A DNA stretch of 64,000 nucleotides, from contig JADJSD010000006.1 in the NCBI GenBank assembly GCA_016711875.1, positions 99,470-163,469 of the forward strand, given 5' to 3'. Numbering within the stretch: the stretch's first letter is position 1; every line of letters starts with the position of its first letter. Position numbers and translations under genes: made by a program. The stretch comes from Betaproteobacteria bacterium (GTDB lineage Bacteria; Pseudomonadota; Gammaproteobacteria; Burkholderiales; Usitatibacteraceae). Positions 11,437 to 31,039 of the stretch are shown here, in pieces. The notes under the pieces are model-generated. The model made no database searches and was not told the DNA's origin. It saw only the letters and a list, made by a program, of their open reading frames with translations.

Positions 11437-11565
11437 GGTGCGTCGCTCCGCTCGGGGGTTTCGTCGTCCCCAAGCTAACGCGCGCACCGGGAATGCATTT
11501 GCCGCAGGTCAAAGGCCCGGTTCGCGGGCATCCGGGGGGAGGGCCCCCCGGCGAGACGGCTGGGG

Positions 11566-13308: not shown

Positions 13309-13927
13309 CCTCGTTGCGGCGCAGGAACGGCAGCGTCCACGGCGGGTCGTAGCGCGCGAGCTGCACGGGACCGGCCGCCTCGAGGCCCTCGGTCTTCACC
13401 CAGGCGAGGAGCTCGTCGGTCTTTTCCCTCACCTTGCCCTCGCCGGAGAAGCCCGAGAACTTCACCACGGCCATGCGCTGGGGCGGCAATTCGAGAAGCT
13501 TCACGCGCTCGTCCTTCGGGCGCGGCAGCGTCGCCATCGTGTACTGCGCCGGCATCACGAAGTGCATGCGGTAGCGCCCGCCCGTGCCGTCCCCGGACGG
13601 CTCCATCGTGACCGGTGCCGTCATCGCGATCTTCTCGGCGACGGGCTCGGTCGTCACGGGGGCTGTCATGGCGATCTTCTCGGCTCCGGCGCCCGTCACG
13701 GACACGTTGTTGCCGAAGATGTACCCGGCGATCACGCGGAAACCGTCGTTCGAGGCGCCCCACAGGTCGCCCTCGATCTCGGCCTGCGCGACGATCCTCG
13801 GCGCGTAGCGGCGGACCTCGAAGTCGCCGCTCGATTTCACGGTGTCGAAGGCGGGTTCCTCGATGCGGGCCATGGCGGTGGGGGCGGCGAGCGCGGCGAT
13901 GAGGGCGAGCGTGGCGGGGCGTTTCAT
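13289..13927 (-). CDS. SOUL heme-binding-family protein (secreted)
   Basis: 212 aa from ATG (comp.) 13925-13927 with signal peptide MKRPATLALIAALAAPTAMA. Contains the duplicated EKIAMTAPVT motif and PPWTLPFLRRNEV, typical of SOUL/HBP proteins. Confidence 0.85.
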   Translation of the reverse strand: MKRPATLALIAALAAPTAMARIEEPAFDTVKSSGDFEVRRYAPRIVAQAEIEGDLWGASNDGFRVIAGYIFGNNVSVTGAGAEKIAMTAPVTTEPVAEKIAMTAPVTMEPSGDGTGGRYRMHFVMPAQYTMATLPRPKDERVKLLELPPQRMAVVKFSGFSGEGKVREKTDELLAWVKTEGLEAAGPVQLARYDPPWTLPFLRRNEVMVPLR

Positions 13928-14015
13928 GGGCGCGATGCTCGGACGAAGGGCCAGTATGGACCGGCCGCGGGCCTGCGAGTTCGGCCCCGTTCCGCCGATG
14001 CTAGACTTTCGTCCC

Positions 14016-14438
14016 ATGAAACGGGTCGCGTTTTCCTCGCCCATCCACGACGCGCTGACCGTGGGTCGAAGCCGCATCGTGGGCCGCGGGCTCTTCGCGG
14101 GCGGCCCGATCGCGCGGCGCGCCAAGATCGGCGAATTCGAAGGCGAGGTCATCACCATCCGCGAGGCCCGTCACCGTGCCCGCGCGCGCAAGGTGATCGC
14201 GATCGTGGAGCTGGTGACGAAGGCCATCGACGCGCGGGGCATGCGCACGGGCTTCCGGTACATCAACCATTCCTGCGAGCCCAACACCTTCATGCGCCGA
14301 ACCGACGAGCGCGCGGAGTTCTACGCGCTTCGGGACATCCGGGCCGGCGAGGAGCTCACGCTCGACTACGGCGACAATCACCACGAAGGTCGCCTCGCCT
14401 GCCGCTGCGGCGCGGCGCGCTGCCGGGGAAAGCTCTAG
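14016..14438 (+). CDS. SET-domain protein (putative lysine methyltransferase)
   Basis: 140 aa from ATG 14016. GRGLFA...FRYINHSCEPN...ELTLDYG...CRCGAARCRG contains the SET NHSC and ELxxDY motifs plus a post-SET Cys cluster. Confidence 0.8.
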   Translation: MKRVAFSSPIHDALTVGRSRIVGRGLFAGGPIARRAKIGEFEGEVITIREARHRARARKVIAIVELVTKAIDARGMRTGFRYINHSCEPNTFMRRTDERAEFYALRDIRAGEELTLDYGDNHHEGRLACRCGAARCRGKL

Positions 14439-14554
14439 GCCGGAGGGACACGATTCGTTACGCCTGCCGCCGCGAAGGGCGGGTACACTTCGCGCCTGCC
14501 GGACCGGTCCGGCCCGGGACGAACCGCCCCCCGCGGTATACCGACAACGACACC

Positions 14555-16822
14555 ATGCCCCGATTCGCGCCGCGCCGCCTCGCCCTCGCCTGCCTGTTCT
14601 CCCTCACGCCCGTTCTCGCGCAGCAGCCCGCCGACCCGCCGGCGGCAAGGGACGCGGCGCCCGCCAGGCCGGCGACGCCACCCGCGAAGCCCGCGGCCAG
14701 GGCCGATTCGCCGGCCAAGGTGGATTCCATCAGCGTCGAGCAGAAGCGCACCACCACGTCGGACCGGCGCGACTCCACCGCCTCGAAGATCGTGATCGGG
14801 CGCGACGAGATCGAGCAGTACGGCGACACCAACCTGTCCGACGTGCTGCGCCGGCTCCCCGGCGTGACCCAGGGCGGGCGCCCGGGCCGCGGCGGCCCCA
14901 TCGCGTTCCGGGGCCTGGGCGGGGGCTTCACGCAGATCCTGATCAACGGCGAGCGCATCCCGCCGGGCTTCTCCATCGAGGACATCGCGCCCGAGCAGGT
15001 CGAGCGCATCGAGATCCTGCGCGCGCCCACGGCCGAGACGGGCACGCGCGCCATCGCGGGCACCATCAACATCGTGCTGCGCGAGGCGCTGAGGAAGCGC
15101 ATGAACGACTTCAAGCTGGGCGCCACGCACGAGAACGGCCGCACCGGGTTCAACGGCTCCTATACGCGCAACGACACTTTCAGCGAGACGGGCAGCTACA
15201 ACATCACCATCTCGCCCACGTACCGCAACACGCGCAACGAATCCGACATCCGCAACGTGTTCACCGACCTGCCCTCGGGCGAGGTCACGCGCGACCAGGC
15301 CATCCAGTCGCAGAACACGGGCGAGAACAAGAGCGTCTTCGCGACGGCCCGCCTTCAGTGGCGCCTCGGTCCGGGCGAGCAGGCGAGCTTCCAGCCCTTC
15401 GTGGTGTCCTCGCGCAACGAGAGCATCACCGACTCGCGCCTCACCCAGGCCGTGGGCCTCGCGCCCTACGACACGGCGCGCGGCCGTTTCGAGTCGGGCT
15501 TCGACTCGGCGCGCTTCATGACCATGCTGCAGAAGCGGTTCGACCCCCTCACGACCTACGAGCTGCGCGGCGGCGCCGGGCGCTTCACGGTGGACGTGGA
15601 CGGCCGCACCGAGCAGTTCGACCGCGCGGGCACCCGCACGCTGCTGCAGACGACGGTGAACGACATCTCGGACCGCTCGTGGAACGTGGCGGGCAAGCTG
15701 GCGCGGCGCTGGGGCGAGACGCACAACTTCTCCACGGGCCTCGAGCGCGAGGAATCGCAGCGCACCGAAAGGCCGCTCACGATCGTGAACGGCGTGCCGC
15801 AGCTCGCCGGTTTCGGGGCGCAATACGACGTGGGCACCGAGCGTTCGGCGCTCTGGATGCAGGACGAGTGGGACCCGAACCCGAACTGGTCCACGTCGCT
15901 GGGCGTGCGCTGGGAGGAGATCCTCACGAAGAGCCAGGACGAGAGCGCGCCGGTGCGCAACGCGAGCCGCGTGGTGAACCCGCTCGCGCACCTGGTGTGG
16001 CGCTTCGACGCGCCCAAGCGCGACCAGCTGCGCCTGTCGCTCACGCAGAGCTATCGCGCGCCGCCCACGCAGAACCTCGTCGCCCGCCCGCGCCTGAACT
16101 CGCAGGATCCGGTGCCCGGCCCCAACGAGCCGACGAGCGCGGACTTCGCCGGCAACCCGAACCTGAAGCCCGAGGTCGCCAACGGCCTGGAGTTCGCCTT
16201 CGAGCGCTACCTCAAGCAGAACGGCGTCGTGTCGGTGAACGTCTTCACGCGCCGCATCCGCGACGTGATCCGCAGCGTGACGGAGCTGGAGACGGTGAGC
16301 TGGTCCCCTTCGCCGCGCTGGGTCACGCGACCGCAGAACTTCGGCCGCGCGCAGACGGCGGGCCTGGAGTTCGACACCAAGTTCGTCCTGACGGAACTCG
16401 TCGAGGGGGCGCCCGCGGTCAACGTGCGCGCCAACGTGTCGTTCTTCCGCTCGAAGGTGGACGAGGTTCCGGGCCCGGACAACCGCCTCGCGAGCCAGCC
16501 GGACATGACGGCCAACGTCGGCGCCGACTACCGCTTGCGCGGCTCGCCCTTCGCCGTGGGCGCGGCCGTCAACTGGACGCCGGGCTACGACACGCGCCTC
16601 ACCTTCGAGCAGCGCGAGAGCGCGGGCCGCAAGGCGGCGTGGGACACCTACCTCCTCTGGCACATCGACGCGGCCACGCGGCTTCGCTTCACGCTCGCGG
16701 GCGTCGTGCCGCGCGATTCGCACACGGCATCCTCGTACGAGCTTCCGTCGGAGTTCCAGCAGTCGCGCACGGTGGGTCGCGGCTATCTCGTCACGGGCCT
16801 TCGCTTCGAGATGCGGCTCTAG
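14555..16822 (+). CDS. TonB-dependent outer-membrane receptor
   Basis: Start ATG 14555 within ORF 13082..16822, with signal peptide MPRFAPRRLALACLFSLTPVLAQQ. Plug-domain motifs are present (DTNLSDVLRRLPGV, IAFRGLGGGFTQILINGERI, VERIEILRAPTAETGTRAIAGTINIV). The protein ends in an aromatic residue-containing beta-barrel terminus (...GLRFEMRL). Confidence 0.9.
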   Translation: MPRFAPRRLALACLFSLTPVLAQQPADPPAARDAAPARPATPPAKPAARADSPAKVDSISVEQKRTTTSDRRDSTASKIVIGRDEIEQYGDTNLSDVLRRLPGVTQGGRPGRGGPIAFRGLGGGFTQILINGERIPPGFSIEDIAPEQVERIEILRAPTAETGTRAIAGTINIVLREALRKRMNDFKLGATHENGRTGFNGSYTRNDTFSETGSYNITISPTYRNTRNESDIRNVFTDLPSGEVTRDQAIQSQNTGENKSVFATARLQWRLGPGEQASFQPFVVSSRNESITDSRLTQAVGLAPYDTARGRFESGFDSARFMTMLQKRFDPLTTYELRGGAGRFTVDVDGRTEQFDRAGTRTLLQTTVNDISDRSWNVAGKLARRWGETHNFSTGLEREESQRTERPLTIVNGVPQLAGFGAQYDVGTERSALWMQDEWDPNPNWSTSLGVRWEEILTKSQDESAPVRNASRVVNPLAHLVWRFDAPKRDQLRLSLTQSYRAPPTQNLVARPRLNSQDPVPGPNEPTSADFAGNPNLKPEVANGLEFAFERYLKQNGVVSVNVFTRRIRDVIRSVTELETVSWSPSPRWVTRPQNFGRAQTAGLEFDTKFVLTELVEGAPAVNVRANVSFFRSKVDEVPGPDNRLASQPDMTANVGADYRLRGSPFAVGAAVNWTPGYDTRLTFEQRESAGRKAAWDTYLLWHIDAATRLRFTLAGVVPRDSHTASSYELPSEFQQSRTVGRGYLVTGLRFEMRL

Positions 16823-17430
16823 AGGGCGCCGGCCTTTTTCAGCACCTTCGCCACGGCCTCGGCGATGCGCCGGTAGCCCTCGGCATTGGGGTGCACGAGA
16901 TCGCTCTTCAGGCTGCTGCTGCCGAGCACGTCGGCCAGCACCTCGGTCTCGACCGGCACCGAGAGCTCCTTGCCGATCTCCCCGTAGAACTTCACCTTCG
17001 AGACGCCGAAGCCGGGCTTGGGCGTCGCCAGCAGCACCACGGCGACCCCCTGCTGCTGCGCGAGCCGCACCATGGCCTTCACGTTGGCCGCCGCGCTTTC
17101 CTCGCCGAGCTTTCTCAGGAAGTCATTGCCGCCGTGGCAAAGGATGAGCAGTGCCGGTTTCGATTCCTCCAGCAGCCGGGGAAGGCGCTCGAGGCCCTCG
17201 GCCGAGACTTCGCCGGGCACGCCGGCGGCGACGACCTTGCGGCCGATCATCCGCTCCAGTTCGGCGGGATAAGCCTGGGCGGGCGTCGCGCCGGTGCCGA
17301 AGGTGAGGCTGTCGCCGAACGCGAGCACGACGGCGTCGCCACCCAGTTTCGGGAGCTTCGGATAGGAAGGGCCGCAGCCCGCGAGGGCGGCGGCCCCGAT
17401 GAACGCCAGCAGGAGGAAGGTTCGTCGCAC
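16819..17430 (-). CDS. SGNH/GDSL-family hydrolase lipoprotein (arylesterase-like)
   Basis: 203 aa with lipobox LAGC. Blocks present: FGDSLTFG, GVPGE, CHGGNDF and DLVHPN. Confidence 0.85.
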   Translation of the reverse strand: MRRTFLLLAFIGAAALAGCGPSYPKLPKLGGDAVVLAFGDSLTFGTGATPAQAYPAELERMIGRKVVAAGVPGEVSAEGLERLPRLLEESKPALLILCHGGNDFLRKLGEESAAANVKAMVRLAQQQGVAVVLLATPKPGFGVSKVKFYGEIGKELSVPVETEVLADVLGSSSLKSDLVHPNAEGYRRIAEAVAKVLKKAGAL

Positions 17431-17471
17431 GCCGGTCCTTGTTCGGGCCGGCGCGCGGCGCGCCGGGCGGA

Positions 17472-20400
17472 TTACGGTAGCACGCGCCAGGCGGTCGGAT
17501 GCGAAAGCACCACAACGCCGAGGAAGGCCCCGTTCCGGTAGCGCAAGGACTTGAGTTCTCCCGCGCCGCTCGTGAAAAGCAGGTCGAGCCCGCCGTCGCC
17601 GTCGAAGTCCGCCACCTGCACGAGGCGCCAGTCGCCGCCGGCGGGGACCGCCGTGAGGCTCGAGATCGCGTAGTCCCTGCCGAGCGTGGCGATGGCGACC
17701 TGGTGGTTCGGTCCTCGAGGACGAGGTCGTCCGCGAAGTCGCCGTCGAAGTCCACGACGTCGCTCACGCGCCAGCCGGCCGGGATCGCGAGGGCCGAGCG
17801 CAGCGGGGGCGAGAGGCCGTCGAGCCGCCAGAGGGCCGCCTCGCCGGCCGGACCCTCGAGCACGAGGTCCGTGCGCCCGTCGCCGTCAAAATCGCCGCCG
17901 CGCGCGACCTTCCAGCCCTCGGCCGGCCAGGCGATGTCGGTGAACCTGCCCCCCGCGGCGCCCGCGATGGATTGCAGCCGGATGTCGGTGGCGGTGGCGA
18001 GGACGAGATCGGCCTGCCCGTCGGCATCGAGATCGGCCACCGCGAGGAACGCGAGACCCGCCTTCGGGTCGGCCAGCGCCGACCGGGATTTCACGGCCGG
18101 GCCGTCCATCGTCCAGATCGCGAGCGAGCCGTCGGCCGCCTTCACGAGCAGGTCGTCCTTGCCGTCGCCGTCGAAGTCGCCGATGGCCTCGATCGCGTCG
18201 TCGCTCGCGAGATCGGCGAGTTCGGTGACACGCGCGACGCCGATGCCGTCAAGGGCCCACACCTGCGTGCGGCCATCGTCGTGGCGAAGCACGAGATCCG
18301 ACGTGCCCGCGCCGTCGAAGTCGGCGAATCCCGCGACGTGCCAGCCCGAGCCGTCCGGCAGGAGCTGCTGCCCGTCCATCGGGGCGTTGTCGTTGGACGT
18401 GAGGATCGCGAGGCCGCCGGAGGCCGTCTCGAAGAAGATCGGCGTGCGGCCGTCGCCCGTCGTGTCGCGGTTGCGCGCGGCGGGGTTCGTGGTCTTCACG
18501 AACACCGCGATCGGGGTCGAGGAGGCCGCGTGATAGTTCGTGTCGCCGCCGTACCGCGTCGTGACGGCGCGCGGGCCGTTGGCGATGCGGTTCGTCGAGC
18601 ACGTGGCGTGTCCGCGGTCGAGCGCGATGCCGGCGCAGCCCGCGATCGGCACGCCGTCGATCAGGAAATCGACCTTGCCCGTCACGGCGCCGTACGCGCC
18701 GCGGGCGTCCAGCGTCACGACGAGGGGCGCGCGGTAGTTCACGACCGGCGGGGTCGCGACCGCCACGAGTGCGGCGTCCAGGTGGTCGATGGCGATGGTG
18801 ATGATCGCCGGCGCGGGCGGCAGGTACGACGCGTCGCCCGGTTGCGTGGCCTGGACCGAGCAGGTGCCCGGCGCGATCGCGCGCACCTCGGTGCCCGAGA
18901 CCGTGCATACCGCGGGCGTGAGGGACACGAGCGTCACCGGTTGCGCGGAGGGGCCGCCGTTCACGGTGACCGTCCCGCCCTGGCCGAGGGTGATCGTCGC
19001 CGGCGGCGTGAGGGTGATCGCCTGCGCCGCGCGTTCGACGAGCGGCGTGGCCGCGGAACACGATTCCGTGCCGGCGAGGTCGCCCGAGGCGGCCTTCGGC
19101 GTCACGCAGTAGAAAAGGTACTGGCCGACATCGGCGGTCTGAACGACGTGCGGGCGCGCGGCGCCGCCGGTTGCCCCCTGCGAGACGACCGCATTGTCGC
19201 CCGCGGTGGCGAGGGAGGCGTCGGCGGAGCGGACCCAGCGGAACGCGGTGCCCGACGGACCCGCATCCTCGGGGTCGCCTTCGCTGTCGGCGTAGGTGTA
19301 TCGGCCCGTGAGCGTGTCGCCGAAGCGCGGTGTGGCGTTGGGACCCGTGGCCGCGACGGCGCTCGCGATCGGCGGCGTGTTGGCCACGAAGGTCGCGGAG
19401 ACCGTGCAGGAGGCCGTGAGCGGGGCGACCGTGTAGGTGCCGCCTGCGATGGCCGTGCCGGCGAACTGCCCGCCGCAACCCGAGACGGACTGCACGAGGT
19501 GGCCGGCCTGCGGGGTGACCGTGAAGGTGGGTGTCGCGCCGTAGGCGCCATCGACCGGCGCGGACAGCGTGCCGCTGCCGGCGACGGCGGTCGACACGCC
19601 GTAGTGGCGCGTCGCGCCGCAGGAGGCCGTGGTGCCCGTGTTGGCGCCCGCGCAGCTCCAGGAGAAGGCGGTGGAGCCCGCCGCAACCGCGCTCGCGCTT
19701 CCGGCGCTGCACAGTTGCGTCGGCGTCGAGACGAGGGTCGCGCCGTCGTCGCCGCCGCACGCACCGTTCACGATGGCCACGAAGGTCGCGGCCACGACGC
19801 AGTTCGCGGTGATGGCTCCGGTGGTGTAAGTGCTGCCCGCGAGCGAGCCGCCGCAGCCGGAGACGGATTGCACGACCCAGCCGGCGCTCGGCGTGACGGT
19901 GAAGGCGGGCGTCGCGTGGTACGCGACGTTCTGCGAGGCGGAGATCGTGCCGCTGCCCGAGACGACGGAGGCCGTCACGGCGTAGAGACGCGGGGCCGTG
20001 CAGGAAGCGGTCGTGCCCGTGTTGGCGCCGGCGCAGCTCCAGTCGTAAGCGGAACTGCCTGTCGTGACGCCACTCGGCGTGCCGGTGGTGCAAAGCGCCG
20101 CCGTCGGCGTGGCGAGCGTGCTCGCGCCGTGGTCGGAACCGCACGCGCCATTCACGATGGCGACGAAAGTGGCGCTTACGGAGCAGTTCGCCGTGACGGC
20201 GCCGGTGGTGTACGTGGTGCCGGAGAGGGAGCCGCCGCAGCCGGTGACCGACTGGACAACCCAGCCCGCGCCGGGTGTCACGGCGAAGGACGGCGTCGCG
20301 CCGTAGGTCACGTTCTGCGAGGCGGACACAGTGCCGGTACCCGAGGCGACGGACGCGCTCGCGGTGTACAGGCGCGTGGCGAAGCACGACGCGGTGCTGC

Positions 20401-21730
20401 CGCCATTGGTGCCGGCGCAGGACCAGTCGTACGACGCGTTGCCCGTCGTGACCGCGCTCGCGCCGCCGGCCGAGCACAGGGCCGAAGGCGCCGCGAGGCG
20501 GCTCGTGCCCTGGTCGGCGCCGCACGCGCCGTTCACCTGGGCGATGAAGGTCGCGCTCACGCTGCAGGCCGCAGTGACCGGGGCCGTCGTGTAGGTGTTG
20601 CCCGCGAGGGAACCGCCGCAGCCGGTGACCGACTGGATCACCGAGCCCGCGTTGGGCGCCACGGTGAAGGCGGGCGTGGCGTTGTAGGCGACGTTCTGCG
20701 AGGCGGAGACCGTGCCGCTGCCCGAGGCGACGCTCGTCGTCACGGGGTAGTGGCGGGTCGCCGAGCAGGAGGCCGTGGAGCCGCCGCCGCTGCCCGAGCA
20801 GGACCAGGCGTAGTCCGTCGTTCCCGAGGTGACGGCGCTCGCCGATCCGGCCGAGCACAACGACGTGGGCGTCGTCGTGAGCGTCGCCCCACCGTGCGCG
20901 CCGCACGAGCCGCTCACCACGGACAGCGGCGTCACGGCGTTGCTCGGGCTGGACGGATCGCTGAAGACCGTCGCGCTCTTCTGGGCCGAGACGGTGAAGG
21001 TGTAGGTGGTTCCGTTCGTGAGTCCGCCCACCGTGATGGGGCTGCCGGCGCCGGTCGCCGTGATGCCGCCGGGGGAGGACGTGATGGTGTAGCCCGTGAC
21101 GCCGCTCGAGGCGGAAGGCGTGAAGCCCACCGTCGCGCTGGCGTTGCCGGCGACGGCGGTGACGGCCGTCGGGGCCGCGGGGGCCGTCGGGTTGGCCGTG
21201 GCGCCCGTGACGTTCACGAGCAGGTCGACCGTCGTGCCGTAGGTGTAGCTGCCGCACAGGGCCGGGGAGGCGGCGTACTGCATGATCATGCGCACGTACA
21301 TCGGGCCGTTGTAGGACGAGGACGGGATGCTGATCGAGCCGGAGAAGGTGCGGAACGTCGCGAAATCCGCGTTCTGGTCGAACACGAGCTCGGCCGGATC
21401 CTCGATCGCGCCGTTCTGGTTCTGGTCGAACCAGAACTTCACGTACTCCTGGTAGGAGGTGCCATCCGTGAGCACGTCGACTTCCACCGTGTACGACTGA
21501 CCGGCCTGCAGGGTGGCGACGGCCGTGGCTGTCGCGTCGTGGTAGCCCGTCTTCGGTATCGTGACCGAGGTGCCGTTGATGGCGACGCGGGTCACCCATT
21601 CGTAATTCTGGTTGGAGCCCACCGAGGAGCACAGAGGCGAGACCGCGCGCGCGGGCGGCGATGCCGCGATGACGAGCAGCGCGAGGAAGGCGAGCAGGGA
21701 GCCTGCGAGGCCTCGGGATCGGGAGTTCAT
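17472..21730 (-). CDS. Giant secreted surface protein 1, with one frameshift near the 3' end as assembled. Domains: GEVED-like N-terminal domain, FN3, 4 x Cys-motif + InlB-B-type modules, Ig-like domains, FG-GAP/VCBS repeats.
   Basis: Start ATG (comp.) 21728-21730 with signal peptide MNSRSRGLAGSLLAFLALLVIAASPPARA. ORF 17123..21730 is coherent up to ...DVVDFDGDFADDLVLED (about 17708) and then becomes Arg/Pro nonsense. A 1-nt shift at about 17705-17713 gives PNHQVAIATLGRDYAISSLTAVPAGGDWRLVQVADFDGDGGLDLLFTSGAGELKSLRYRNGAFLGVVVLSHPTAWRVLP* (stop comp. 17472-17474), which is colinear with the paralog's C-terminus. FG-GAP-type motifs present: FDGDGKDDLLV, DLDADGQADLVL, FDGDGRTDLVL. Confidence 0.8.
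19382..20914 (-). repeat. Four tandem coding repeats of about 126-129 codons inside giant gene 1
   Basis: Protein residues about 273-783. Each unit is N-G-A-C-G...(L)C(S/T)(A/T)G...Y(D/A)WSC(A/S)G...(S/T)ASC.A.R.Y, then ...SG.GT.SASQNV.Y.ATP.F.V.P.AG.V.QSV.GCGGSL.G..YTT..(V/I)TA.C.V.ATF(V/I)A. Confidence 0.85.
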
Positions 21731-21842
21731 GGGTTGACCTCGTGGGGATGGCGCACGGATGCGGACTCATCCAGCCTGATCCCGCCGTCTGCCGTTCGAT
21801 CGCCGGAAAAGAAGGGTGATGACGGTTCCCGGTTGACCTGCG

Positions 21843-21873
21843 TCAACGAAGAACGCCGGCCCGAAGGCCGGCG
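21843..21873 (-). terminator. Rho-independent terminator candidate after giant gene 2
   Basis: On the minus strand, CGCCGGCC-TTCG-GGCCGGCG (plus-strand 21854-21873) is followed by TTCTTCGTT. It lies 24 nt downstream of the inferred stop at 21898. Confidence 0.5.
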
Positions 21874-21897
21874 CTTCCCGGGGGGGCGGCGAACGTC

Positions 21898-24800
21898 CTA
21901 GGGGATCACGCTCCAGCGCAGCGTCGGCAGGTGGATCACCGCCTCGCCCTCGTACAGGCCCCCCGCTGGTACAGCGCCGTGACCACTTCGCCCCGGTCGC
22001 TAGTGAAGAGCAGGTCGAGGAAGCCGTCGCCGTCGTAGTCGCCGACCTGCCAGAGCTTCCAGTCCGAGGCCTCGGCGAGCGTGCCGATGCTCAGGCTCGC
22101 CAGCTCCTGCGCGAAGTAGGCGATGGAGACCTTGCCTTCCGGGCTCACGAGGATCAGGTCGTCGATGAAGCTCGCGTCGAAGTCCACCACGTCCGTCACC
22201 TTCCAGCCCGCCGGCACGGCGTTCACCGACTGCTGCGCGAGGGCGATGCCGTCCAGGCGCCAGACCATCACGTGGCCCTTGAAGTCCTCGAAGACGAGGT
22301 CCGTGCGGCCGTCACCGTCGAAGTCGCCGGTGTGGGTGAGCGCGTAGCCGTCGCCGGGCATCGGGAAGTCCGCGTACTCGGCGGCGGCGCCGTTCTCGAT
22401 GCGCTGCAGGCGGAGGCCGGTCGGCGTGCGCAGGACGAGATCCGCATGGCCCAGGCCGTTGAAGTCGGCCACGAGCGCGAACTCGATGCCCTCGCCCGGG
22501 ACCGTCACGTCGATCGTGCCCTGCACGCGCCCGGCCTTCATGAGCGCGATGGCGAGCGATCCGTCCAGGCGCTTCACGAGGAGGTCGTCGATGCCGTCGC
22601 CGTCGAAGTCCGCGAACGCGAGGACCTTCGTGCCGGCGGGAATGTCGGTGAAGTCGGCGCGCTTCAGGATGCCGATGCCCTCGAGGCTCACGATCTGGAA
22701 GCGGCCGTCCTCATGCTCGATGAAGACGTCCGGGTTCGCGTCCCCGTCGAAGTCGCCGAAGCCCGTCACGTGCCAACGCGAGCCTTCCGGCAGCAGGTTC
22801 TGCCCGTCGGAAGGGACGCGGTCGCGGCCGTTGATGGTCTGGATGGAGAAGCCGCCGTCGGCCGTCTCGTAGAAGAGCGCGGTGCGGCCGTCGCCCGTCA
22901 CGTCACGGCCGCGCGAGCCCGGATTGGTGGCCTTCACGACCATCGCCTGGGCCGGCGCGTGGCCCGCCTTGTAGTTGGTGTCGCCACCGTAGCGGGCCGT
23001 GGCCGGGCGCTGGCCGACGGGCAGGCGGTTGGTCGCGCATTCGGCCTTGCCCTTGGAGAGCGTGACCCTGGCGCAGCCGGGGATCACGTTGTCGCCGTAG
23101 TAGAAGCCCACCTCGCCCGTGACTTCCTGGTAGCTGCCTGTCGCCTCGAAGAAGAACGTGACCTTCGAGCGGTACCTGGCCGGCGCGGGGTTCGCGGCGA
23201 GCGCGAGCCGGGCGTCGAGCCGGTCGATGATGACCGTTTGCGTCACCGAGACCGGGGCGTGGTAGTTGTCGTCGCCGCCTTGCGTCGCGACGATGGTGCA
23301 GGCGCCCGGACCGATCGCGCGCACCGCGTTGCCTTCGACCACGCAGACCGACGGCGTGAGGGTCGAGAGCGTGACCGGGGACGTGGACGGGCCGCCGGTC
23401 GGGTTCGCCGTGGTGTGGGTGCCCAGGGTGATGGTCGGCATCGGGGGCAGTGTGATGACCTGCGCGCCACGGCCGACCGCGACCTGGAGCAGGACCTGCG
23501 GAGCGGGGTTCCAGTCGGCGGTGCCTTCCTGGTCCGCGGCGATGACGCACGTGCCCGCGACGAGGCCGCTCACCGTGTTGCCCGAGAGCGCGCAGACGGC
23601 CGGGGTCACGTTCGAGAACACCACGGGCCTGCCGGAGGCGCCGCCCGTCGCGCCGACGCTGCCGCTCGTGCCGACGGTGACCGTCGGGGCCGGGGCGAAC
23701 GCGATGGCCTGGTCCCCCTCTGCCGATGGTGAAGGTGAGTGTGCCCTGCGGGCGCGGCCCGGGTGGGGTACGCGGCATTGCCCGAGGCCTGGTTGGCGGT
23801 GAGGTGTGCCTCGCGGGCCCCCCCCCCCCCGGCGGATGCAGCTGCCCGCCGTGATGCCGGTGACGGTGCTGCCCGCGAGGCTGCAGACGGCCGGCGTGGT
23901 GTTCGCGAGGACGACGGCAATGCCCGAATCGCCGCCGGTGACCGAGACCGTGCCGCTGCCGGAGACGACCACGGCCGGGATCGTGCCGAAGGTGATGGAC
24001 TGCGGGGCCTTCTCGACGGCGGCGGAGGCGACCGAGCAGGCCTCGACGCCCGAGGCGACGCCGGTGGCGGCCTTCGGGGTCACGCAGTAGAAGAGGTACT
24101 TGCCGACGTCGCCGGCCTGGATCACGTAGTTGCGCGTGACGCCGCCAGTGACGCCGCTCGCCACGACGACGTTGTCGCCCGCCGTGACGAGGGTCGCGTC
24201 GTCGGAGAGGATGAAGCGGTAGGCGGAGCCCGAATGCGCCCTTGTCCTGCAGGGTCGCCGTCGGCATCGTGATAGGCGTACGTGCCCGCCACGCCGCTCC
24301 CGAAGCGCGGGGTCGCCACGGCGTTGGGCGCGATGGCCACGGATTGGGCCACGGGCGCGACGTTCGCGAGGAACGAAGCGCTCACCGTGCAGGCCGCCGT
24401 GACCGGGGCCGTCGTGTAGACGCTGCCCGAGAGCGAGCCGCCGCAGCCGCTGACCGACTGGAGCGAGTAGCCCGCGGCCGGCGTGACGGTGAACTGCGGC
24501 TGCGCGTTGTATGCCACGTCCTGCGACGGGGTGATCGTGCCGCTGCCGGCCGCGATGCTCGAGCCCACGTGGTACTGGCGCGGGGCGTAGCAGGCGACGC
24601 TGGAGCCGCCGCCGATGCCGGCACAGGTCCAGTCGTAGGAGGTGTTGGCCGAGGAGACCGCGCCGGCCGTGCCGGAAGTGCAGAGCAGGCTGGCCGGGGC
24701 CGAAGTCACCGCGGCGAGGTGCGCGGCGCCGCAGGCGCCGTTCGCGACCGCGAGGCCCGTGCCGGTGAGCGCGACCGTCTCATTGGTGGCGTTGGAACTG

Positions 24801-26143
24801 ACCGTGAGGTTGGCCGAGTAGCCGCCGCCCGCCGCCGGCGAGAAGTTGAGGGTGATCGTGCAGGAAGCCGCCGGGGCGAGCGTCGCGCCGGTGGTGCACG
24901 TTCCGCCCGTCGCCGCGAAACTCGCCGCGTTCGCGCCGCTCAGGTTGAAGCTGCCGAGCGTGAGGTTGCTCGAACCGTCGTTGGTGGCGGTGAAGGTCAC
25001 GGTGGCGCTCGTGCCGCCCATCGCGACACTGCCGAAGTCCGCGCTGGCGGGCGTCACGGTGAGGATGCCGTTGTTGCCCTGCAAGGCGACGGAGCCGGAC
25101 GTGTCGTTCGACGTGACGGTGAGCCAGCCGAACTTCGCGCCCGTGGCGGCGGGCGTGAAGTCCACAACGAGGTTGCACGAGGCGCCCGGGGCGACAAGGG
25201 CGCCCGCGACACATTGGCCCGCGCCACCGGAGGTGACGGAGAAGTCGGATGCGTTGGCGCCCGAGATCGTGAAGGTGCCGAGCTGCAGGTCGGCCGTGCC
25301 CGTGTTGCTCACCACCACCGTCTGCGAGACGGCGGCGACGCCCACCGGCGTGTTGTAGCCCAGGCTCGTCGTGGACAGGTGCAGCTGGGGCAGCTGGATG
25401 GTGCCCGACGGCGGGACGACGGAAGAACCGAAGGCGTCGAAGAGCACGTAGCCGCCGTGGCCGCCCTGCGAGCAGCCGGCCGCGAGCACGTCGATCTCGA
25501 GCGTGTGGCCGAGAGACGAGTCCGGGACGACGACGTCCGTGTTGCGCCAGTTCGTGTAGAACCAGCCGCTGCCCGTGGCGAAGAACTTGGACGGGTCGCC
25601 GGCGTAGACGAATTCCTGCCAGAGTATCGTGCCCAGCGTCACGTCCTTGAGCTGCATGAACATGTACGGCTGTTGCGCTGGGCTGTGGCCCGCGGCCTCG
25701 AGGGCCGCCGCCCAGGCGAAGCGGATGTGCAGCTGGCCGTCGGTCGCGTCGCGGTCCGCGTTGGTGACCGTGTCCTGCTGCTTGATGCGGTTGTAGTTGT
25801 TGCTGTTGCCGTGGTCGCTCGTGTTGTTCGAGTTCACGATGACCGAGTACGACCCCAGCCGCGGCGACTGGATGGCGTTCAGGGTGTTGGCCACGGTCGC
25901 GCTGCCCAGTCGCGAGGTGAGCGTGCGGCCGTTGCCCGGTGTGAGGTTCAGGCTCGAGCCGTTGAACGGACCCGCGCCGGAAAGCGCGGCCGTGGTTCCC
26001 TTCTCGAATTTCCAGGGTCCCGAGTTGTCGAGGGGGAGGGCGCTTTCGAAGCCGCCATTGGTGAAGATGGCATGCGACAGCATCGGCATCGCGAGCAGCA
26101 ACAGGGCCGCGACCGCGGCGATCGACGTGGTGAAGCGCTTCAT
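21898..26143 (-). pseudogene. Giant secreted surface protein 2, a paralog of 17472-21730, with the frame broken at 5 or more places as assembled. Domains: CBM4_9-like N-terminal domain, 2 x choice-of-anchor-D-like domains, one Cys-motif + InlB-B-type module, Ig-like domains, FG-GAP/VCBS repeats.
   Basis: Start ATG (comp.) 26141-26143 with signal peptide MKRFTTSIAAVAALLLLAMPMLSHA, then IFTNGGFES. ORFs 24122..26143 and 21936..24164 are one gene. Joining them needs a 1-nt shift near 24231-24247 (...GTYAYHDADGDPAG / HSGSAYRFILSDDATLVTAGDN...). Three more switches occur within 23714-23830. A last one at the C6 run 21959-21964 leads to LYEGEAVIHLPTLRWSVIP* (stop comp. 21898-21900). Confidence 0.8.
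23818..23830. repeat. Homopolymer C13 (G13 on the coding strand) inside giant gene 2
   Basis: Read directly from the sequence: ...tcgcggg ccccccccccccc ggcggatgc... Confidence 0.95.
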
Positions 26144-26299
26144 GGGGGACCCTTCCCGATCTGGTAGGCAACGTGTTTACGGTTGCAAACAGGTCGGGCT
26201 TGAGGAGCCGCGCCAAATATTCGGAGAAAGGAGGGCTTCCCGGGGCGGTGACGCGAATGCGCCGGGCTTTAGAAAGCCATTTGAAACAGGGGGGTTGCG

Positions 26300-26849
26300 C
26301 TATCCGCGGTCGGCGGAATGGAGGCAGGAGGGTTCGATTGTCAGCGAATGCTCACCTGCCGACAGCCAGATCTGCCCTTCCTGCAGGGTGGCCTGCAGCT
26401 TCACGCGTTCCGCGCGGCGAGCTTCGCGCAGGCGCGCGTGATCTCCGGGGCAGCGCGATGACATCGAGGTTCTTCTGGCGCGAAAGCGCCTCGCCGTTCT
26501 GGCGCTACCCAGATCTCCGCACCAGTTCCGTAGACGAACACCGCGACCCGCTCGCGCGCCCGCAGGCCTTGCGGATCTCGCGCTCGTCCGGCAGGCCCAC
26601 GTCGATCCACAGGTCGATGGCGCCGGTGAGGTCCGTGAGCACCAGGTCGGCCTCGCCCTCGCTCGACAGGCCGCGGCCGAACTCGAGCCGCTCGTCGGCG
26701 TTCATCGCGAAGGCGAGCACGCGCACCATCATCCGCTCGTCGGTTTCGGACGGGTGGCGGGCGATCGTGAGCGCGTGCGTGGCGAAGTGGCCGCGGTCGA
26801 GGTCCGAGACGACGATCTCGGCCTTGAAGATGGTGGCCTTGAGGGCCAT
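26300..26849 (-). pseudogene. yaeQ: YaeQ-family protein, multiply frameshifted as assembled
   Basis: [99 protein letters not shown] is intact. The remainder ([15 protein letters not shown] / RQNGEALSRQKNLDVIALP / EITRACAKLAARN / KLQATLQEGQIWLSAGEHSLTIEP) is spread over three frames between about 26300 and 26570. Confidence 0.75.
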
Positions 26850-26853
26850 CGGG

Positions 26854-27149
26854 CTACTTCTTCTGCTGGGCTTGTCGGCCGGGGCGGTGAGCGCGGCGCG
26901 CAGGAGCGCATCGACGGTCTGGTTGATGTCCTCGCCGGCGGCTTCGGCGCGATCGCGCAGCTGCTTCACCAGGTCGCCGTGCAGCTTGCACGCGAAGGGA
27001 ACGAGGCCGGCGGCCGCGTCGAGCCGGCGCTGTTCCTTGCGGTCGGGCATCTGGGCCACGCCCTTGCCGTAGCGATCGGACACGCCGCCGTGGCGGACGG
27101 CATTCTCGGCCTTGAGGGCCGCGTTCTTGTGCAGGTCGGTGAGCTTCAT
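26854..27149 (-). CDS. Small hypothetical protein (about 98 aa), with the 3' end frameshifted into yaeQ as assembled
   Basis: ATG (comp.) 27147-27149 is preceded by GAGG. The protein reads [90 protein letters not shown].... A 1-nt shift near 26870 gives ...RQAQQKK* with its stop (comp. 26854-26856) 4 nt before the yaeQ ATG. Confidence 0.5.
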
Positions 27150-27233
27150 GGGGACTGCCTCGAATCGGGTAACCCGCCATTCTACGCGTGCGGGGGGCAG
27201 TAGAATGGCGCATTGCTCCCGAAAGACCCCGCC

Positions 27234-28692
27234 ATGACCGCCCGCCCGAACCTTTCCGCCATCGACCACGAGGCCCTCGCTCGCCGGATCGACCGCCAGT
27301 GGGATGCCGAAATCGTCCCGCAACTCGTCGAATACGTGCGTTTGCCCGCCAAAAGTCCCATTTCGACCTGGATTGGGAGAAGAACGGGCATATCGAGGCG
27401 GCCATCCAGCAGGCGCGCCGGTGGGGGGAAGCGCAGGGCGTGAAGGGCCCCGGCCCGAGATCGTGCGCATCGCCGGGCGCACGCCGGCCCTCTCTTCGAC
27501 ATTCCCGCCACCCGCGGCGCCTCGGACGAGCGCCCGGTGCCTTCTACGGCCACTCGACAAGCAGCCGGAAATGACGGGCTGGCGCGAGGGACTCGGCCTG
27601 GATCCCCGTCTTCGAGGACGGCAAGCTCTACGGTCGAGGCGGCGCGGACGACGGCTACGCGGTCTTCGCGGCCCCTGGCGGCCATGATTGCCTCGATGCG
27701 GAAGGCATCGCCCGGCCGCGCTGCGTGGGCCTTATCGAGACGTGCGAGGAAAGCGGCAGCTCGACCTGCCCGCGTACCTCGACCTCCTCGCGCCGCGCAT
27801 GGGCGAGGTGGCGCTGGTCGTCGCCCTGGACTCCGGCGCGCGGCAACTACGAGCAGCTCTGGGTCACGACCCGCTGCGCGGCCTCGTGAACGGCACGCTC
27901 GAGGTGAGCATCCTCGACGAAGGCGTGCACTCGGGCGACGCGGGCGGCATCGTGCCTCGTCCTTCCGCATCGCGCGGCAGGTGCTCGATCGCATCGACGA
28001 TTCGCGCACGGGCGTGGTGAAGCCCGCGGCCTTCAACTGCGACAGTTCCCGCCGACCGCCCCTCGCGCAGGCGCAGCAGGCGGCGGGCGATCCGGGCGAT
28101 TCGGTCTGGAAGCGTTTCCCGTGGGCGGCGTGTTGCGACGACCACGGCACGGCCTCGCTCTTCGCCGAACCGGTGACGAAGGATCCGACCGAACTGGTGC
28201 TGAACCGCACCTGGCGCGCGGCCCTGGCGGTCACCGGGCGCCGATGGACTTCCGCCCAGGGGCCCGCTGGCAACGTGCAGCGCCCTCACGACGAAGCTGT
28301 CGCTGCGCATCCCGCCGCTCGTCGATGGCCCCGCCGCGGTGCGCACCTGAAGGGGAGCGCTCGAGGCGGATCCGCCCTACAACGCGCGCGTGGTCTTCGA
28401 GGGCGATTCGGCCGCCACCGGCTGGAACGCGCCGCCGGCCGCGCCTTGGCTCTCGGCGGCTCCTCGACGCCGCCTCGATGGCGAATTCCGGCAGCCCGCC
28501 GCCTACATGGGCGAAGGCGGCACGATTCCCTTCATGGGCATGCTGGGCGTGAAGTTCCCGAACGCGCAGATGCTCGTCACTGGCGTGCTGGGCCCGAAAT
28601 CGAACGCGCACGGCCCCAACGAGTTCCTGCACGTGCCCTATGCCAAGCGCGTCACCGTCGCCACCGCGATGGTGGTGGCCGCCGCGCCTTGA
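27234..28692 (+). pseudogene. M20-family metallopeptidase (dipeptidase-like), heavily frameshifted as assembled
   Basis: Fragments across three frames: [42 protein letters not shown] / [22 protein letters not shown] / [19 protein letters not shown] / [17 protein letters not shown] / [14 protein letters not shown] / LEVSILDEGVHSGDAGGIVP / AYMGEGGTIPFMGMLGVKFPNAQMLVTGVLGPKSNAHGPNEFLHVPYAKRVTVATAMVVAAAP*. Confidence 0.8.
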
Positions 28693-28697
28693 GGGAG

Positions 28698-29756
28698 GTG
28701 CTCGCGGCGATCGCGCTCGGGGCGATCGCGCCGGGCGCGTCTGCCGCGCCCACGGCGGAAGCGCTCGAGGCCTCGCGCAGCGCTTCCCGGCGATCGCGCC
28801 GCGGAGCGCGGTAAGGCCCGTTTCGAGTCGATGCTGGCGCCCGCTCCTTGGCGCCCGCGCGGCCCGCCGAGCCTGCGGCGCGCACGATGCCCACCACGGA
28901 CCTCGGCCTGGACAGGGCGCTTCGGCCTCGCAGTTCCGCCGCCTGTGGGCGACGCCAAGGAGCGCCTGGTCCGACGCCGGGGAGTACCACGGCACTATTT
29001 CCCGCCCGCCTTCCGCGCGAAGAACCCCAGCCTCGTGGCCGTGCGGGCGGGCGAGGGCGCGACGCCTGTGCTCCTGCCTTCGGAACGCCAGGCGACCGAG
29101 GCCAAGTTCCAGTTCTCGTTCAGGGGCCATCTCTGGCCCCAGGACGATCGCGGTCGCCACGACCTGTGGTTCGGCTACACGCAGGTTTCCCATTGGCAGC
29201 TCTGGAACGGCGACGCCTCGCGTCCCTTCCGCGAGTCGAGCTACGAGCCCGAACTCATCTACACCTACGAGCCGGCGCGCCTCGACTGGGCCGGTTGGCG
29301 CGTGGGGCACTTCGGGCTCTCGCTCAACCACAACTCGAACGGGCAGGGCGGGGAACTCGCGCAGCTGGAACCGCGCCATCGCCTTCGTGCGCGCGGAGAA
29401 GGGTTCGACGCTCGTCACCCTGCGCGCATGGACGCGCCTGCGCGAGAACGGCATCGACGACAACCCGGACATCGAGGACTACTACGGTCGCGCGGACCTG
29501 CAGGTCTCCCGGGTCTTCGCGAACGGCATGCAACTCACGGCCACGGGGCGGCATACGCTGCGCACCGGCGCCCGCAACCGCGGGGCAATCCAGCTGGACC
29601 TCTCCGCGCCCCTGTGCCGGGATTCCTGACCGGCGTGGATCGCGTCGACAGCGCGCGCTACGTGCAGGGCTACCACGGGTACGCCGAGAGCCTCATCGAC
29701 TACAACCGCAAGGACAGCTACCCGGGAATGGGCTGTCGATAGGCGAATCGCGCTGA
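28698..29756 (+). pseudogene. pldA: Outer-membrane phospholipase A (OMPLA/PldA-type), heavily frameshifted as assembled
   Basis: Fragments: signal-like VLAAIALGAIAPGASAA; EAKFQFSFRGHLWP...LWFGYTQVSHWQLWNGDASRPFRESSYEPELIYTYE...GHFGLSLNHNSNGQGGE / SRSWNRAIAFVRAEKGSTLVTLRAWTRLRENGIDDNPDIEDYYGRADLQV / YVQGYHGYAESLIDYNRKD. The exact start and stop are uncertain. Confidence 0.7.
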
Positions 29757-29812
29757 AACGACCGTTTACCTCGAGTGACGGGCCGCGCGGGACGGAGCGC
29801 TATCAGGGCGCC

Positions 29813-31039
29813 ATGAGCGCATCGCCGACCCCTCCCCGCCGGCCGCCGCCGCTTCCCGCCCTTGTCATCGTCGCCTTCCCGGGCGCTGGCCGCGCTGGGT
29901 GCCTGGTGGCTCGCACGGGACAGAGCCCGCAGGCCGCCGCCAAGACCGGTCCCGCGGCCGTGCCCGTCACCGCCGCCGTCGTCGAGAAGCGCGATGTCCC
30001 GGTCACCGCGCGGAAACGGCTCCGGCGATCGCGATCCAGTCGGTTGACCTGCGTGCGCAAGTGACCAGCACCGTGCGCGAGGTGCACATCCGCGAGGGGC
30101 AGAACGTGAACAAGGGCGACCTGCTCGTTCCTCGACTCGCGCGCGGACGAAGGCCAACGTGAAGAAGGCGGAGGCGCAGGTGCAGAAGGACCTCGCGGAC
30201 CTCGCCAACGCGAAGCGCACGCTCGAGCGCCAAGCAGCTCTTCGCGCAGAAATTCATCGCCCAGTCGGCGCTCGATGCGGCCGAGAACCAGGCCGCCTCG
30301 CTCGAGGGGCAACTCGCGGTGGACCGCGCGGCGGCGGAATCGGCCAAGGTCTCGCTCGCCTACACGCAGATCCGCGCGAGCTTCGCCGGGCCGCACCGGG
30401 GCCATCGGCGTGCGCCCGGGCAGCGTCGTGCAGCCCAACGGCGCGGTGCTGGTCACGGTGACGCAGATCGACCCCATCCAGGTCGCCTTCACGCTGCCGG
30501 AAAAGGAATCGCCTGGCCTCGCGAGGGCGATCGCCGCCGGACCGGTCGAAGCCTCGATCACGTCGACGACGATGCCCGGCAGCTCAAGGGGCGCGTGAAC
30601 TTCGTGGACAACGCCGTGGACACCACGACCGGCTTTGATCCGCGCAAGGCGCAGTTCGAGAACCGCGACGCGCCTGTGGCCCGGCATGTACGTCTCGGTC
30701 GCGCTCTCGCCGCGCACGCTCGAGGGCCGCCTCCCGTCGTCCCGGTGCAGGCCCGTGCAGACCGGCCCCGACAGCCGCTCCGTGGCCGTGATCGGCGAGG
30801 AGCGCAAGGTGAGCGCCAAGCTGCTCGTCGTCGCCCCACCTCGACCGGGGCTTCGCGGCCATCACCGGCGTGGACCCCGCGCCCGCGTCGTCGTCGAGGG
30901 CGCACAGAACCTGCGGCCCGGAAGCCTCGTTTCCGTCGGGGAGCCGCCGCGGCGGGTGAAGGGCAGGGCGGGCAAGAGCGGGAGGAACGGGGCGCCGACG
31001 GCGGCGCGCCCCGTCGATGCGGGCAGACGAAAGCGCTGA
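29813..31039 (+). pseudogene. RND efflux membrane-fusion (periplasmic adaptor) subunit, heavily frameshifted as assembled
   Basis: Fragments: VPVTAAVVEKRDVPV / IQSVDLRAQVTSTVREVHIREGQNVNKGDLL / VKKAEAQVQKDLADLANAKRTLER / AQSALDAAENQAASLEGQLAVDRAAAESAKVSLAYTQIRASFAG / GAIGVRPGSVVQPNGAVLVTVTQIDPIQVAFTLPEKE / LKGRVNFVDNAVDTTTG / WPGMYVSVAL / VVVEGAQNLRPGSLVSV. Confidence 0.75.

Follow-up and report, generated by a model that had tools for sequence, protein, structure and literature searches.

A diverged pair of giant, predicted secreted proteins with different heads and a common propeller at a variable chromosomal site in a betaproteobacterium

A 64,000-nucleotide stretch from a Betaproteobacteria bacterium of the family Usitatibacteraceae (GenBank assembly GCA_016711875.1, contig JADJSD010000006.1, positions 99,470 to 163,469; hereafter the window, G+C ~70%) contains two giant genes, gene 1 and gene 2, both on the minus strand and arranged head to tail. 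They are diverged paralogs that encode proteins of ~1400 amino acids (aa) each, with a Sec signal peptide, a variable N-terminal head and a constant C-terminal propeller. We propose with moderate confidence that they are accessory, modular secreted binding proteins of a two-ended adhesin or matrix type, and that both genes are intact in the organism. The original prediction, made from the letters of the window, had described an adjacent minus-strand gene pair with a 167-bp spacer, and both the coordinates and the spacer length (21731-21897, 167 nt) were exact. Its two genes of about 1400 codons were also found, but both are frame-broken as written in the window, and the corrections had not been mentioned.

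In gene 1, the order of domains is signal peptide, GEVED, fn3, four units of a Cys-rich motif and an InlB-B-like module, A9-type immunoglobulin (Ig) domain, Big-like Ig repeat, Big_3_5 and seven-bladed FG-GAP propeller. In gene 2, it is signal peptide, jelly-roll head, two choice-of-anchor D domains, one Cys-rich and InlB-B-like unit, A9-type Ig domain, three Big-like Ig repeats, Big_3_5 and seven-bladed FG-GAP propeller. Hidden Markov model (HMM) annotation, suggested with the original prediction, was run and confirmed GEVED, fn3, Big_3_5, FG-GAP_3 and choice_anch_D; no catalytic domain was detected in either protein by the Pfam and NCBIfam scans. Two contigs from other collections served as references. 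A metagenome contig from JGI (L001, 8810 nt), 99.84% identical to window 13226-22036, carries an intact 1419-aa gene 1 (P0001), whose residue numbers are used for gene 1 throughout; its portion of gene 2, the 3' end, is also in frame. On a metagenome contig from ENA (L002), both giant genes are intact and the spacer is likewise 167 nt.

Domain architecture of the two proteins

The HMM matches and the intact pair of L002 bore out a common C-terminal part joined to differing N-termini: the stalk and propeller architecture is shared and the heads are unrelated. The two L002 proteins are 42% identical over ~1050 residues and ~50% identical over the last 520, and the paralogs of the window share ~67% DNA identity over the 3' 1.5 kb. 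These values rule out a recent duplication. Judged by alignment, gene 1 and gene 2 are old paralogs with unrelated heads.

Seven FG-GAP repeats are visible in the sequence of the propeller, and two Pfam families matched both proteins above their cut-offs, namely FG-GAP_3 (PF13517; 7.9e-14 and 5.8e-19, 52.5 and 68.9 bits, cut-off 26.9) and PF01839 (37.5 and 50.2 bits, cut-off 22.1). The AlphaFold (AF2) model of the propeller had 29 strands, a pLDDT of 88.2 and a pTM of 0.87, in agreement with the roughly seven repeats counted originally. Its best solved neighbor was a seven-bladed N-acetylglucosamine (GlcNAc) lectin, PVL (2bwr), with a template-modelling score (TM) of 0.76; further fold matches were the TcB propellers of Tc toxins (TM ~0.5) and, far weaker, Vibrio cholerae Bap1 (TMq 0.25). 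The sequence profile of the propeller matched integrin alpha-V, CRTAC1, PL11 lyases and a secreted esterase. Four of the seven blades in gene 1 and three of seven in gene 2 carry Dx[DN]xDG in its strict form, the remaining blades being degenerate.

Related proteins end in the same propeller, preceded by varied N-terminal domains such as S8 and reprolysin-like proteases or RCC1 repeats. The combination of a propeller with InlB-B-type modules had been thought unusual; this view was not upheld, as PF18998 and FG-GAP occur together in many proteins of related Betaproteobacteria (GR16-43, Usitatibacter and various metagenomes). The complete genome of Betaproteobacteria bacterium GR16-43 encodes at least seven paralogs with this type of propeller and varied N-terminal domains (for example BWI17_13150, 14580, 14665, 14690, 14695, 14720 and 18600), and on this count the propeller family is expanded in the GR16-43 lineage.

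One copy per protein was also found of the shared module that the original prediction had described. An exhaustive phmmer search retrieved 1247 representative proteins with this module at E<=1e-3; among the 150 best of these 1247 homologs, the median was 4 copies per protein, with up to 16. The top homolog (P0126) has 15 copies and matched PF23197 (IG_AIR9) at 3.6e-153, and 24 of the 31 homologous segments sampled matched the same family. The module itself (L001:2654-3007) gave no PF23197 match in Pfam, its homology to the family being transitive, via homologs only, and a profile search of the PDB with the A9-type alignment yielded a marginal match to the SCAB Ig domain only. The chain of homologs thus identifies the module as a divergent A9-type Ig domain, which makes it a divergent member of a widespread repeat. 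It is homologous to the A9-type Ig repeats that are common in giant bacterial surface proteins, but its copies score below the Pfam model, contain an extra loop of ~20 aa and a Cys pair, and stand singly.

By eye, each protein starts with a basic n-region that leads into a hydrophobic core and then an AxA-type site (ARA followed by V in gene 1; SHA followed by I in gene 2, where the signal peptide comprises residues 1-25). The gene 1 head matched the GEVED family PF20009 over residues 96-172 (E = 4.5e-8, 34.2 bits, cut-off 24.4), with the motif YGTTVD in place of GEVED. The four Cys-rich and InlB-B-like units of gene 1 (127-129 aa) start at residues 273, 400, 527 and 655 (alignment A4). They are 44-54% identical to the single gene 2 unit, and this identity is their sole link to Flg_new_2 (PF18998), a divergent InlB B-repeat family that the gene 2 unit matched at 5.6e-5 and 23.5 bits (cut-off 23.6). 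Pfam returned no significant family match for the Cys-rich/InlB-B stretch of gene 1, and a PDB profile search with these units found nothing. The GEVED-like domain, the FN3 domain and the four Cys-rich modules attributed to gene 1 were therefore recovered. As for the InlB-B-type label, the repeat units are real and that of gene 2 lies at the Flg_new_2 cut-off, but those of gene 1 lack a Pfam match. Further along the shared stalk, Big-like repeats and Big_3_5 account for the predicted Ig-like repeats in both genes; the Big-like repeat of gene 1 matched PF22359 weakly (0.031), and Big_3_5 (PF16640) was matched at 1.9e-10 in gene 1, with a second match at 8.5e-11.

A search of 5.8 billion proteins found the gene 2 head in only seven. 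P0003 and P0004 are gene 2 orthologs; the other five (P0121-P0125) are giant proteins with the head at the N-terminus and DUF11 repeats, most of them also with Flg_new_2, and four of the five have an OmpA-like domain at the opposite end. In Pfam at E<=5, the head gave only a chance-level match to CIF (E = 0.12), and a PDB profile search with the head alignment A1 gave chance-level matches only. The AF2 model of the head is a 12-strand beta-sandwich (pLDDT 67.6, pTM 0.74), for which Foldseek listed generic jelly-roll neighbors (CBM27, CBM28, CBM16, MAM and a gingipain adhesin) with weak scores (TM ~0.3). As far as these data go, the head may be described as a jelly-roll, possibly carbohydrate-binding. 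The label CBM4_9-like, given to it at first, was abandoned because there was neither an HMM match nor a close CBM4 or CBM9 fold match. The two choice-of-anchor-D domains that had been assigned to gene 2 were verified by NF012200, which matched two stretches of the translation of window 24233-26143 (minus strand) at 8e-32 and 110 bits (cut-off 45).

Variation of the site within the genus

On L002, the order of genes is RND pump, PLA1, M20 peptidase, small open reading frame (ORF), yaeQ, gene 2 ortholog (1483 aa), the 167-nt spacer, gene 1 ortholog (1417 aa), GDSL lipase, TonB-dependent receptor, SET and SOUL. In the window, a GDSL/TesA-like lipase gene (16822-17430, minus strand) likewise starts 41 nt past the gene 1 stop. 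We searched 24 species representatives of the same genus for yaeQ and the GDSL lipase gene and examined what lies between them. The site was empty, with flanks less than 100 nt apart, in 12 genomes (G001, G004, G005, G010, G011, G012, G014, G015, G018, G019, G020 and G023), and the pair occupies it in the genome analyzed here (G000). A functional link of the giant genes to the downstream GDSL lipase was considered and rejected, as the lipase gene, which is conserved beside yaeQ in all members of the genus that were examined, adjoins yaeQ in the 12 species without giant genes.

Other contents were seen in the remaining genomes, and in four species (G016, G009, G006 and G003) these are single inserts that differ from one another. 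G016 has 4.5 kb with one gene of the gene 2 type. In G009, 5.4 kb contain one gene of ~1700-1900 aa, with a GEVED and fn3 head of the gene 1 type (75% identity), another stalk and a propeller of 40% identity. G006 has 2.7 kb with a gene in an 899-aa open frame, the C-terminal part of which matches Big_3_5 and the propeller (37% identity). In G003 (locus L019, G003:C31:5000-10000), 3.7 kb encode a LuxR-type regulator and a secreted protein of 812 aa, in which three Big-like repeats of the same type are combined with another C-terminus; the C-terminal domain of this protein is different and duplicated, and the helix-turn-helix of the regulator reads ...KEIAQDLQITPATVRNHL... At least four giant genes surround the site in G013, over two contigs (C82 and C9; loci L020 and L021). 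The large ORFs of G013, at least four in number, are of ~1000-1400 aa; three of them match the Big_3_5/propeller part of gene 1, and one lies downstream of the lipase gene. No state was assigned to G008 and G017, in which the flanks are on separate contigs, or to G002, G007, G021 and G022, in which one or both flanks were not found.

The empty site of G011 (locus L022, G011:C160 ~1225-1290) keeps CGCGTGATACCGTAG, which reads R V I P and a stop and is what remains of a giant propeller gene, its last five codons. Homology to L002 sets in again precisely at these residual codons, and the flanking genes of G011 are among the closest to those of L002. Because the last codons of a giant gene remain and the homology to L002 resumes there, the comparison indicates that the giant genes were deleted in G011 and left a deletion scar.

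From this synteny, the yaeQ-GDSL lipase site is an accessory hot spot at which whole genes and whole domains come and go. Synteny had been named at the outset as a check on whether the pair is accessory, and the empty site in 12 species and the differing contents elsewhere answer in favor of it. Diversification by N-terminal domain swapping, as first suggested, likewise fits a locus that varies by whole genes and domains within the genus. Single-copy relatives had been named as evidence against the proposal: a single related copy occurs in G016, G009 and G006, and none in 12 species, but L002 has the intact pair. The pair illustrates how domain shuffling at one chromosomal site yields a species-specific surface or matrix repertoire, with zero, one, two or at least four genes per species and one deletion scar.

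Integrity of the reading frames and the spacer

As written in the window, gene 1 contains one frame break and gene 2 contains five. Gene 1 is in frame to ~17713 and has a sensible continuation in another frame, which ends in ...HPTAWRVLP. The frame of gene 2 switches once at ~24233-24252, three times within 23720-23833 and once at 21959-21964. These breaks are most likely assembly noise, mostly or entirely, and the genes intact in the organism, because L001 is in frame, a duplicate contig of the same assembly lacks the mid-gene breaks, the insert with a C13 tract resembles junk and neighboring genes are also split.

Over window 13226-22036, no indel was found relative to L001 besides those in two G-runs, one in each gene (Table 1). 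For the remainder of gene 2, the assembly itself (4.93 Mb, 23 contigs, 94% complete) provided a comparison. Its contig C10 (1-8000, locus L018) matches window 23043-31507 with ~96% identity, mostly indel differences and 134 gap openings. C10 does not have the three-switch cluster and reads ...GSCILTANQAGNAAYHAAPQGTLTFTIGKGDQAIAF... in one frame; it also reads ...GTYAYHDADGDLQDTGASGSAYRFILSDDATLVTAGDN... and ...GITAGSCILTANQAGNAAYHAAPQGTLTFTIGKGDQAIAFAPAP... each in one frame, so that there are no breaks at 24233-24252 or 23720-23833, and it carries breaks of its own at other positions. We rejected C10 as a third paralog, since at 96% identity and with mostly indel differences it represents a noisy second copy of this locus. 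The comparison thus places most of gene 2 in an error-rich patch that reaches down to at least ~23040. C10 also lacks ~430 nt that match window 25685-26112.

Apart from the C13 tract (23818-23830), the 64-kb window has no homopolymer that reaches 8 nt. At the same junction of tandem Ig repeats, an independent metagenome-assembled genome of a sister species, G016, contains different G-rich junk (locus L016, G016:C1 ~11430-11500), where its deposited protein P0004 reads ...CILRGGGRPLGGWGLRQRPRPAIAG... Both the C13 insert and the G-rich junk look like artefacts of repeat collapse or low-quality reads. Relative to the L002 proteins, an MFS transporter (window 12146-13224), the M20 peptidase (27234-28650) and an RND membrane-fusion/adaptor protein (30031-30991) are frame-split in the window as well. 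We hold with high confidence that the mid-gene breaks of gene 2 are artefacts, and consider it likely, at a lower level of confidence, that the two G-run indels in the clean stretch are artefacts too.

Six frame breaks in two genes would also be expected of real pseudogenes, that is, of an accessory surface-protein locus decaying through frameshifts and the loss of one Ig repeat. The site is dispensable, being empty in 12 species with only the last five codons left in G011, and both indels of the otherwise clean 13226-22036 hit the giant genes. Four of the six breaks, however, fall in the stretch that the assembly holds twice at 96% identity with errors at differing positions; the only long homopolymer of the window is absent from the duplicate contig; the neighboring genes are split too; and, indels aside, the coding sequence is free of stops and 74-84% identical to the orthologs. 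We therefore consider decay improbable. Other bacteria are known to phase-vary surface proteins through homopolymers, and the breaks at 17712, 21959-21964 and 23818-23830 are all in G/C runs, as they would be if slipped-strand mispairing at genuine poly-G/C switches turned both proteins on and off. The runs at 17712 and 21959, however, span just 2-6 nt, and L001 and L002 have ordinary codons at these positions. The C13 tract lies in a 31-nt insert that encodes nonsense and is absent from C10, L002 and G016, and the different G-rich junk at the same repeat junction in G016 points to a problem in assembling tandem Ig repeats. Phase variation is thus very improbable. If the breaks are artefacts, as we favor, neither they nor the C13 tract nor the "missing" Ig repeat of gene 2 should be interpreted biologically.

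The spacer contains a hairpin 22 nt past the gene 2 stop. It is kept in L002, where the T-run is better, and an 81-nt stretch with the hairpin had a folding z of -3.1. The hairpin looks like an intrinsic terminator, so that gene 1 and gene 2 are probably at least partly separate transcription units. Between 17000 and 26600, a consensus scan for promoters detected no sigma-70-like site. The palindrome and the repeated 9-mer reported for the spacer (copies at 21732-21740 and 21831-21839) were at exactly the positions given. The palindrome is only partly conserved in L002 (TTGATCCGGGTCAA). The 9-mer occurs three times in the window against 0.26 expected; it was rejected as a regulatory element, as the copy at 21732-21740 shares bases with the ribosome-binding site of gene 1 and is not retained in L002.

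Table 1. Coordinates of features of the gene pair and spacer (window positions)
Feature	Position	Strand	Remarks
Gene 1	17472..21730	-	ATG 21730, stop 17472-17474 (ORF/frame reading); ~1419 aa after mending one frame break; intact near-identical protein P0001 on L001; Pfam
Gene 1 Sec-type signal peptide	21644..21730	-	aa 1-29, ...SPPARA/VSP; called by eye
Gene 1 GEVED-type head	21206..21643	-	aa 30-175; PF20009 match aa 96-172
Gene 1 fn3	20942..21175	-	aa 186-263; PF00041 3e-7, 31 bits, cut-off 25
Gene 1 four tandem units	19382..20914	-	aa 273-783; each a six-Cys motif, then an InlB-B-like beta module
Gene 1 shared module	19028..19381	-	aa 784-901; divergent A9-type Ig (by homology), extra loop and Cys pair
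Gene 1 Big-like Ig and Big_3_5	18497..19027	-	aa 902-981, then aa 992-1078
Gene 1 FG-GAP beta-propeller	17475..18493	-	aa 1080-1419; seven blades, C-terminal, end ...HPTAWRVLP
Gene 1 frame break	17712..17713	-	1-nt deficit in G-run (GGG in L001): GAGG-ACC here, GAGGGACC in L001
Gene 2	21898..26143	-	ATG 26143, TAG 21900-21898 (ORF/frame reading, frames corrected); ~1400 aa after frame correction; orthologs P0003, P0004 and L002:5382-9833 intact
Gene 2 N-terminal head	25394..26068	-	aa 26-250, IFTNGGFES...AAGCSQGGHGG...DAFG; rare beta-sandwich (model)
Gene 2 two choice-of-anchor-D / ASH-type Ig domains	24755..25381	-	NF012200; PF22544 1.5e-16
Gene 2 single Cys-rich and InlB-B-like unit	24362..24742	-	PF18998
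Gene 2 A9-type Ig module	24006..24361	-	frame-broken at ~24233-24252
Gene 2 three-switch cluster	23720..23833	-	first Big-like Ig repeat; includes 31-nt insert with C13
Gene 2 Big_3_5 and propeller	21901..23198	-	Big_3_5 at 23198-22935; seven blades; end ...HLPTLRWSVIP
Gene 2 3'-end frame break	21959..21964	-	2 extra nt in G-run relative to L001
Hairpin	21852..21875	-	10-bp, GC-rich, UUCG loop, then CUUCGUU; 22 nt past gene 2 stop
Palindrome GTTGAC-n4-GTCAAC	21832..21847	.	directly after hairpin
9-mer second copy	21732..21740	-	AGGTCAACC on coding strand; overlaps gene 1 GAGG ribosome-binding site

Proposed function and relation to known systems

In the model that we propose, the two proteins would be exported by Sec and leave the cell via one of two GspD-type type II secretion systems; the genome has two GspD matches above the TIGR02517 cut-off. 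They would then act as non-enzymatic two-ended binders, comparable to fibrillar adhesins or biofilm-matrix proteins. The lectin-like propeller, as the constant end, may hold a common ligand, for which a glycan from the envelope or exopolysaccharide of the same cell is the likeliest candidate; at the distal end of the stalk, the interchangeable head may bind a variable target. The hairpin after gene 2 would let the two genes be transcribed at least partly separately. By analogy, we favor placing the propeller at the common end, which may be the one nearer to the cell or matrix, because both head types sit at the N-terminal tips of stalked proteins that are anchored at the other end (the OmpA-like domain in four of the five other carriers of the gene 2 head) and because the same propeller ends related chains behind very different N-terminal domains.

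Several points weigh against this proposal. The Pfam and NCBIfam scans revealed no cell-surface anchor (LPXTG, OmpA-like, autotransporter barrel, PEP-CTERM or type IX secretion system (T9SS) C-terminal domain (CTD)) in either chain, both of which end in the propeller, and neither a lipobox nor a dedicated secretion partner was found for either protein; surface retention by the propeller is for this reason pure inference. The likeness to a lectin, seen in a fold model, does not show glycan binding, as the same fold occurs in lyases and esterases. The two G-run indels could be real strain-specific frameshifts. Gene 2 may in truth have three Big-like repeats, as in the window, or four, as in the orthologs. 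The hairpin was not listed by a consensus terminator scan.

The matches of the propeller profile to a "secreted esterase" (9oee, 2.2e-18) and to the PL11 rhamnogalacturonan lyases YesW and YesX raise the question of whether the proteins, instead of being adhesins, are secreted in soluble form to degrade polymers, as enzymes of the polysaccharide lyase or esterase type or as helpers of such enzymes. The weak likeness of the gene 2 head to CBM27, CBM28 and CBM16 and the GDSL lipase gene next after gene 1 would suit such a role. The esterase and lyase matches, however, are confined to the FG-GAP blades, neither Pfam nor NCBIfam detected a catalytic domain, the fold matches of the head reach just TM ~0.3, and the presence of the GDSL gene beside yaeQ in 12 species without giant genes speaks against linkage; an enzymatic role is accordingly unlikely. 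A literature search on the "secreted esterase" with FG-GAP found nothing. Components of toxin delivery or polymorphic toxins akin to the B subunits of Tc toxins were suggested by weak TcdB_toxin_midN matches (E = 0.001, below cut-off), by structural matches to the TcB propeller and by a profile match to YenB. This likeness is limited to the generic FG-GAP propeller, and the locus has no RHS/YD shell, toxin domain or TcA or TcC partner, which makes a toxin function extremely improbable.

A further reading concerns the propeller itself. With its conserved ...W-x-V-(I/L)-P tail, it might be an unrecognized surface-retention or sorting module of this lineage that serves many cargoes, with the yaeQ-GDSL lipase site as a dedicated cassette hot spot. 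We regard this as a speculative and unlikely extension. If it were true, the propeller would be functionally comparable to the T9SS C-terminal domain or an S-layer-homology anchor; its cargoes would be adhesin heads and, in related proteins, S8 and reprolysin-like proteases; and cassettes would be gained, duplicated, recombined and deleted at the site.

If the binding-protein model is correct, the pair adds one more case of mosaic anchorless binding proteins, in poorly studied and mostly uncultured environmental Betaproteobacteria. The analysis also defines a rare jelly-roll head and a divergent A9-type Ig subfamily, neither of which is captured by Pfam. The pair opens no long-standing question: by sequence comparison, every domain belongs to, or is homologous to, a described family, and the novelty, which is minor, lies in the specific combination of domains, the rare head and the hot spot documented here.

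Bacterial integrin-type seven-bladed propellers have already been described (Chouhan et al. 2011, PMC3192720). The propellers of the pair share with them seven sequential repeats, DxDxDG-type motifs of putative Ca2+ binding, a compact regular fold and a predicted extracellular location; they differ in having the strict motif in only three or four of seven blades and in being the C-terminal part of a 1400-aa multidomain chain. In CshA-type fibrillar adhesins, GEVED is located at the tip and an LPXTG anchor at the other end, and domain shuffling has been described as a source of adhesin diversity (PMC10952558). CshA/CshB adhesins and the proteins studied here have in common a signal peptide, a long Ig-like stalk and shuffled mosaics, with GEVED near the N-terminal tip. 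The present proteins, in contrast, have no CshA_NR2 upstream of GEVED and no LPXTG or known anchor, end in a propeller and come from a Gram-negative betaproteobacterial host.

The best structural neighbor of the propeller, the Psathyrella velutina lectin PVL (TM 0.76 over 385 aligned columns), is a multivalent lectin with a seven-bladed integrin-like propeller that binds GlcNAc between its blades; it is a fungal single-domain protein of 14% sequence identity, and the comparison was one of fold. V. cholerae Bap1 and RbmC are secreted and bind exopolysaccharide and surfaces. Like the pair, they are anchorless and combine a beta-propeller with additional lectin-type domains. Bap1 (6mlt) differs in its weak fold match, an eight-bladed propeller, beta-prism domains and the lack of a long Ig stalk, and there is no detectable sequence relationship to Bap1/RbmC beyond FG-GAP/VCBS-type repeats. 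NCBI names the orthologs "choice-of-anchor D domain-containing protein" (P0004), "putative Ig domain-containing protein" and "FG-GAP-like repeat-containing protein". The first of these names agrees with the two strong NF012200 matches in gene 2, but choice-of-anchor D denotes a domain and not a function, and the rest of the gene 2 architecture lies outside its definition.

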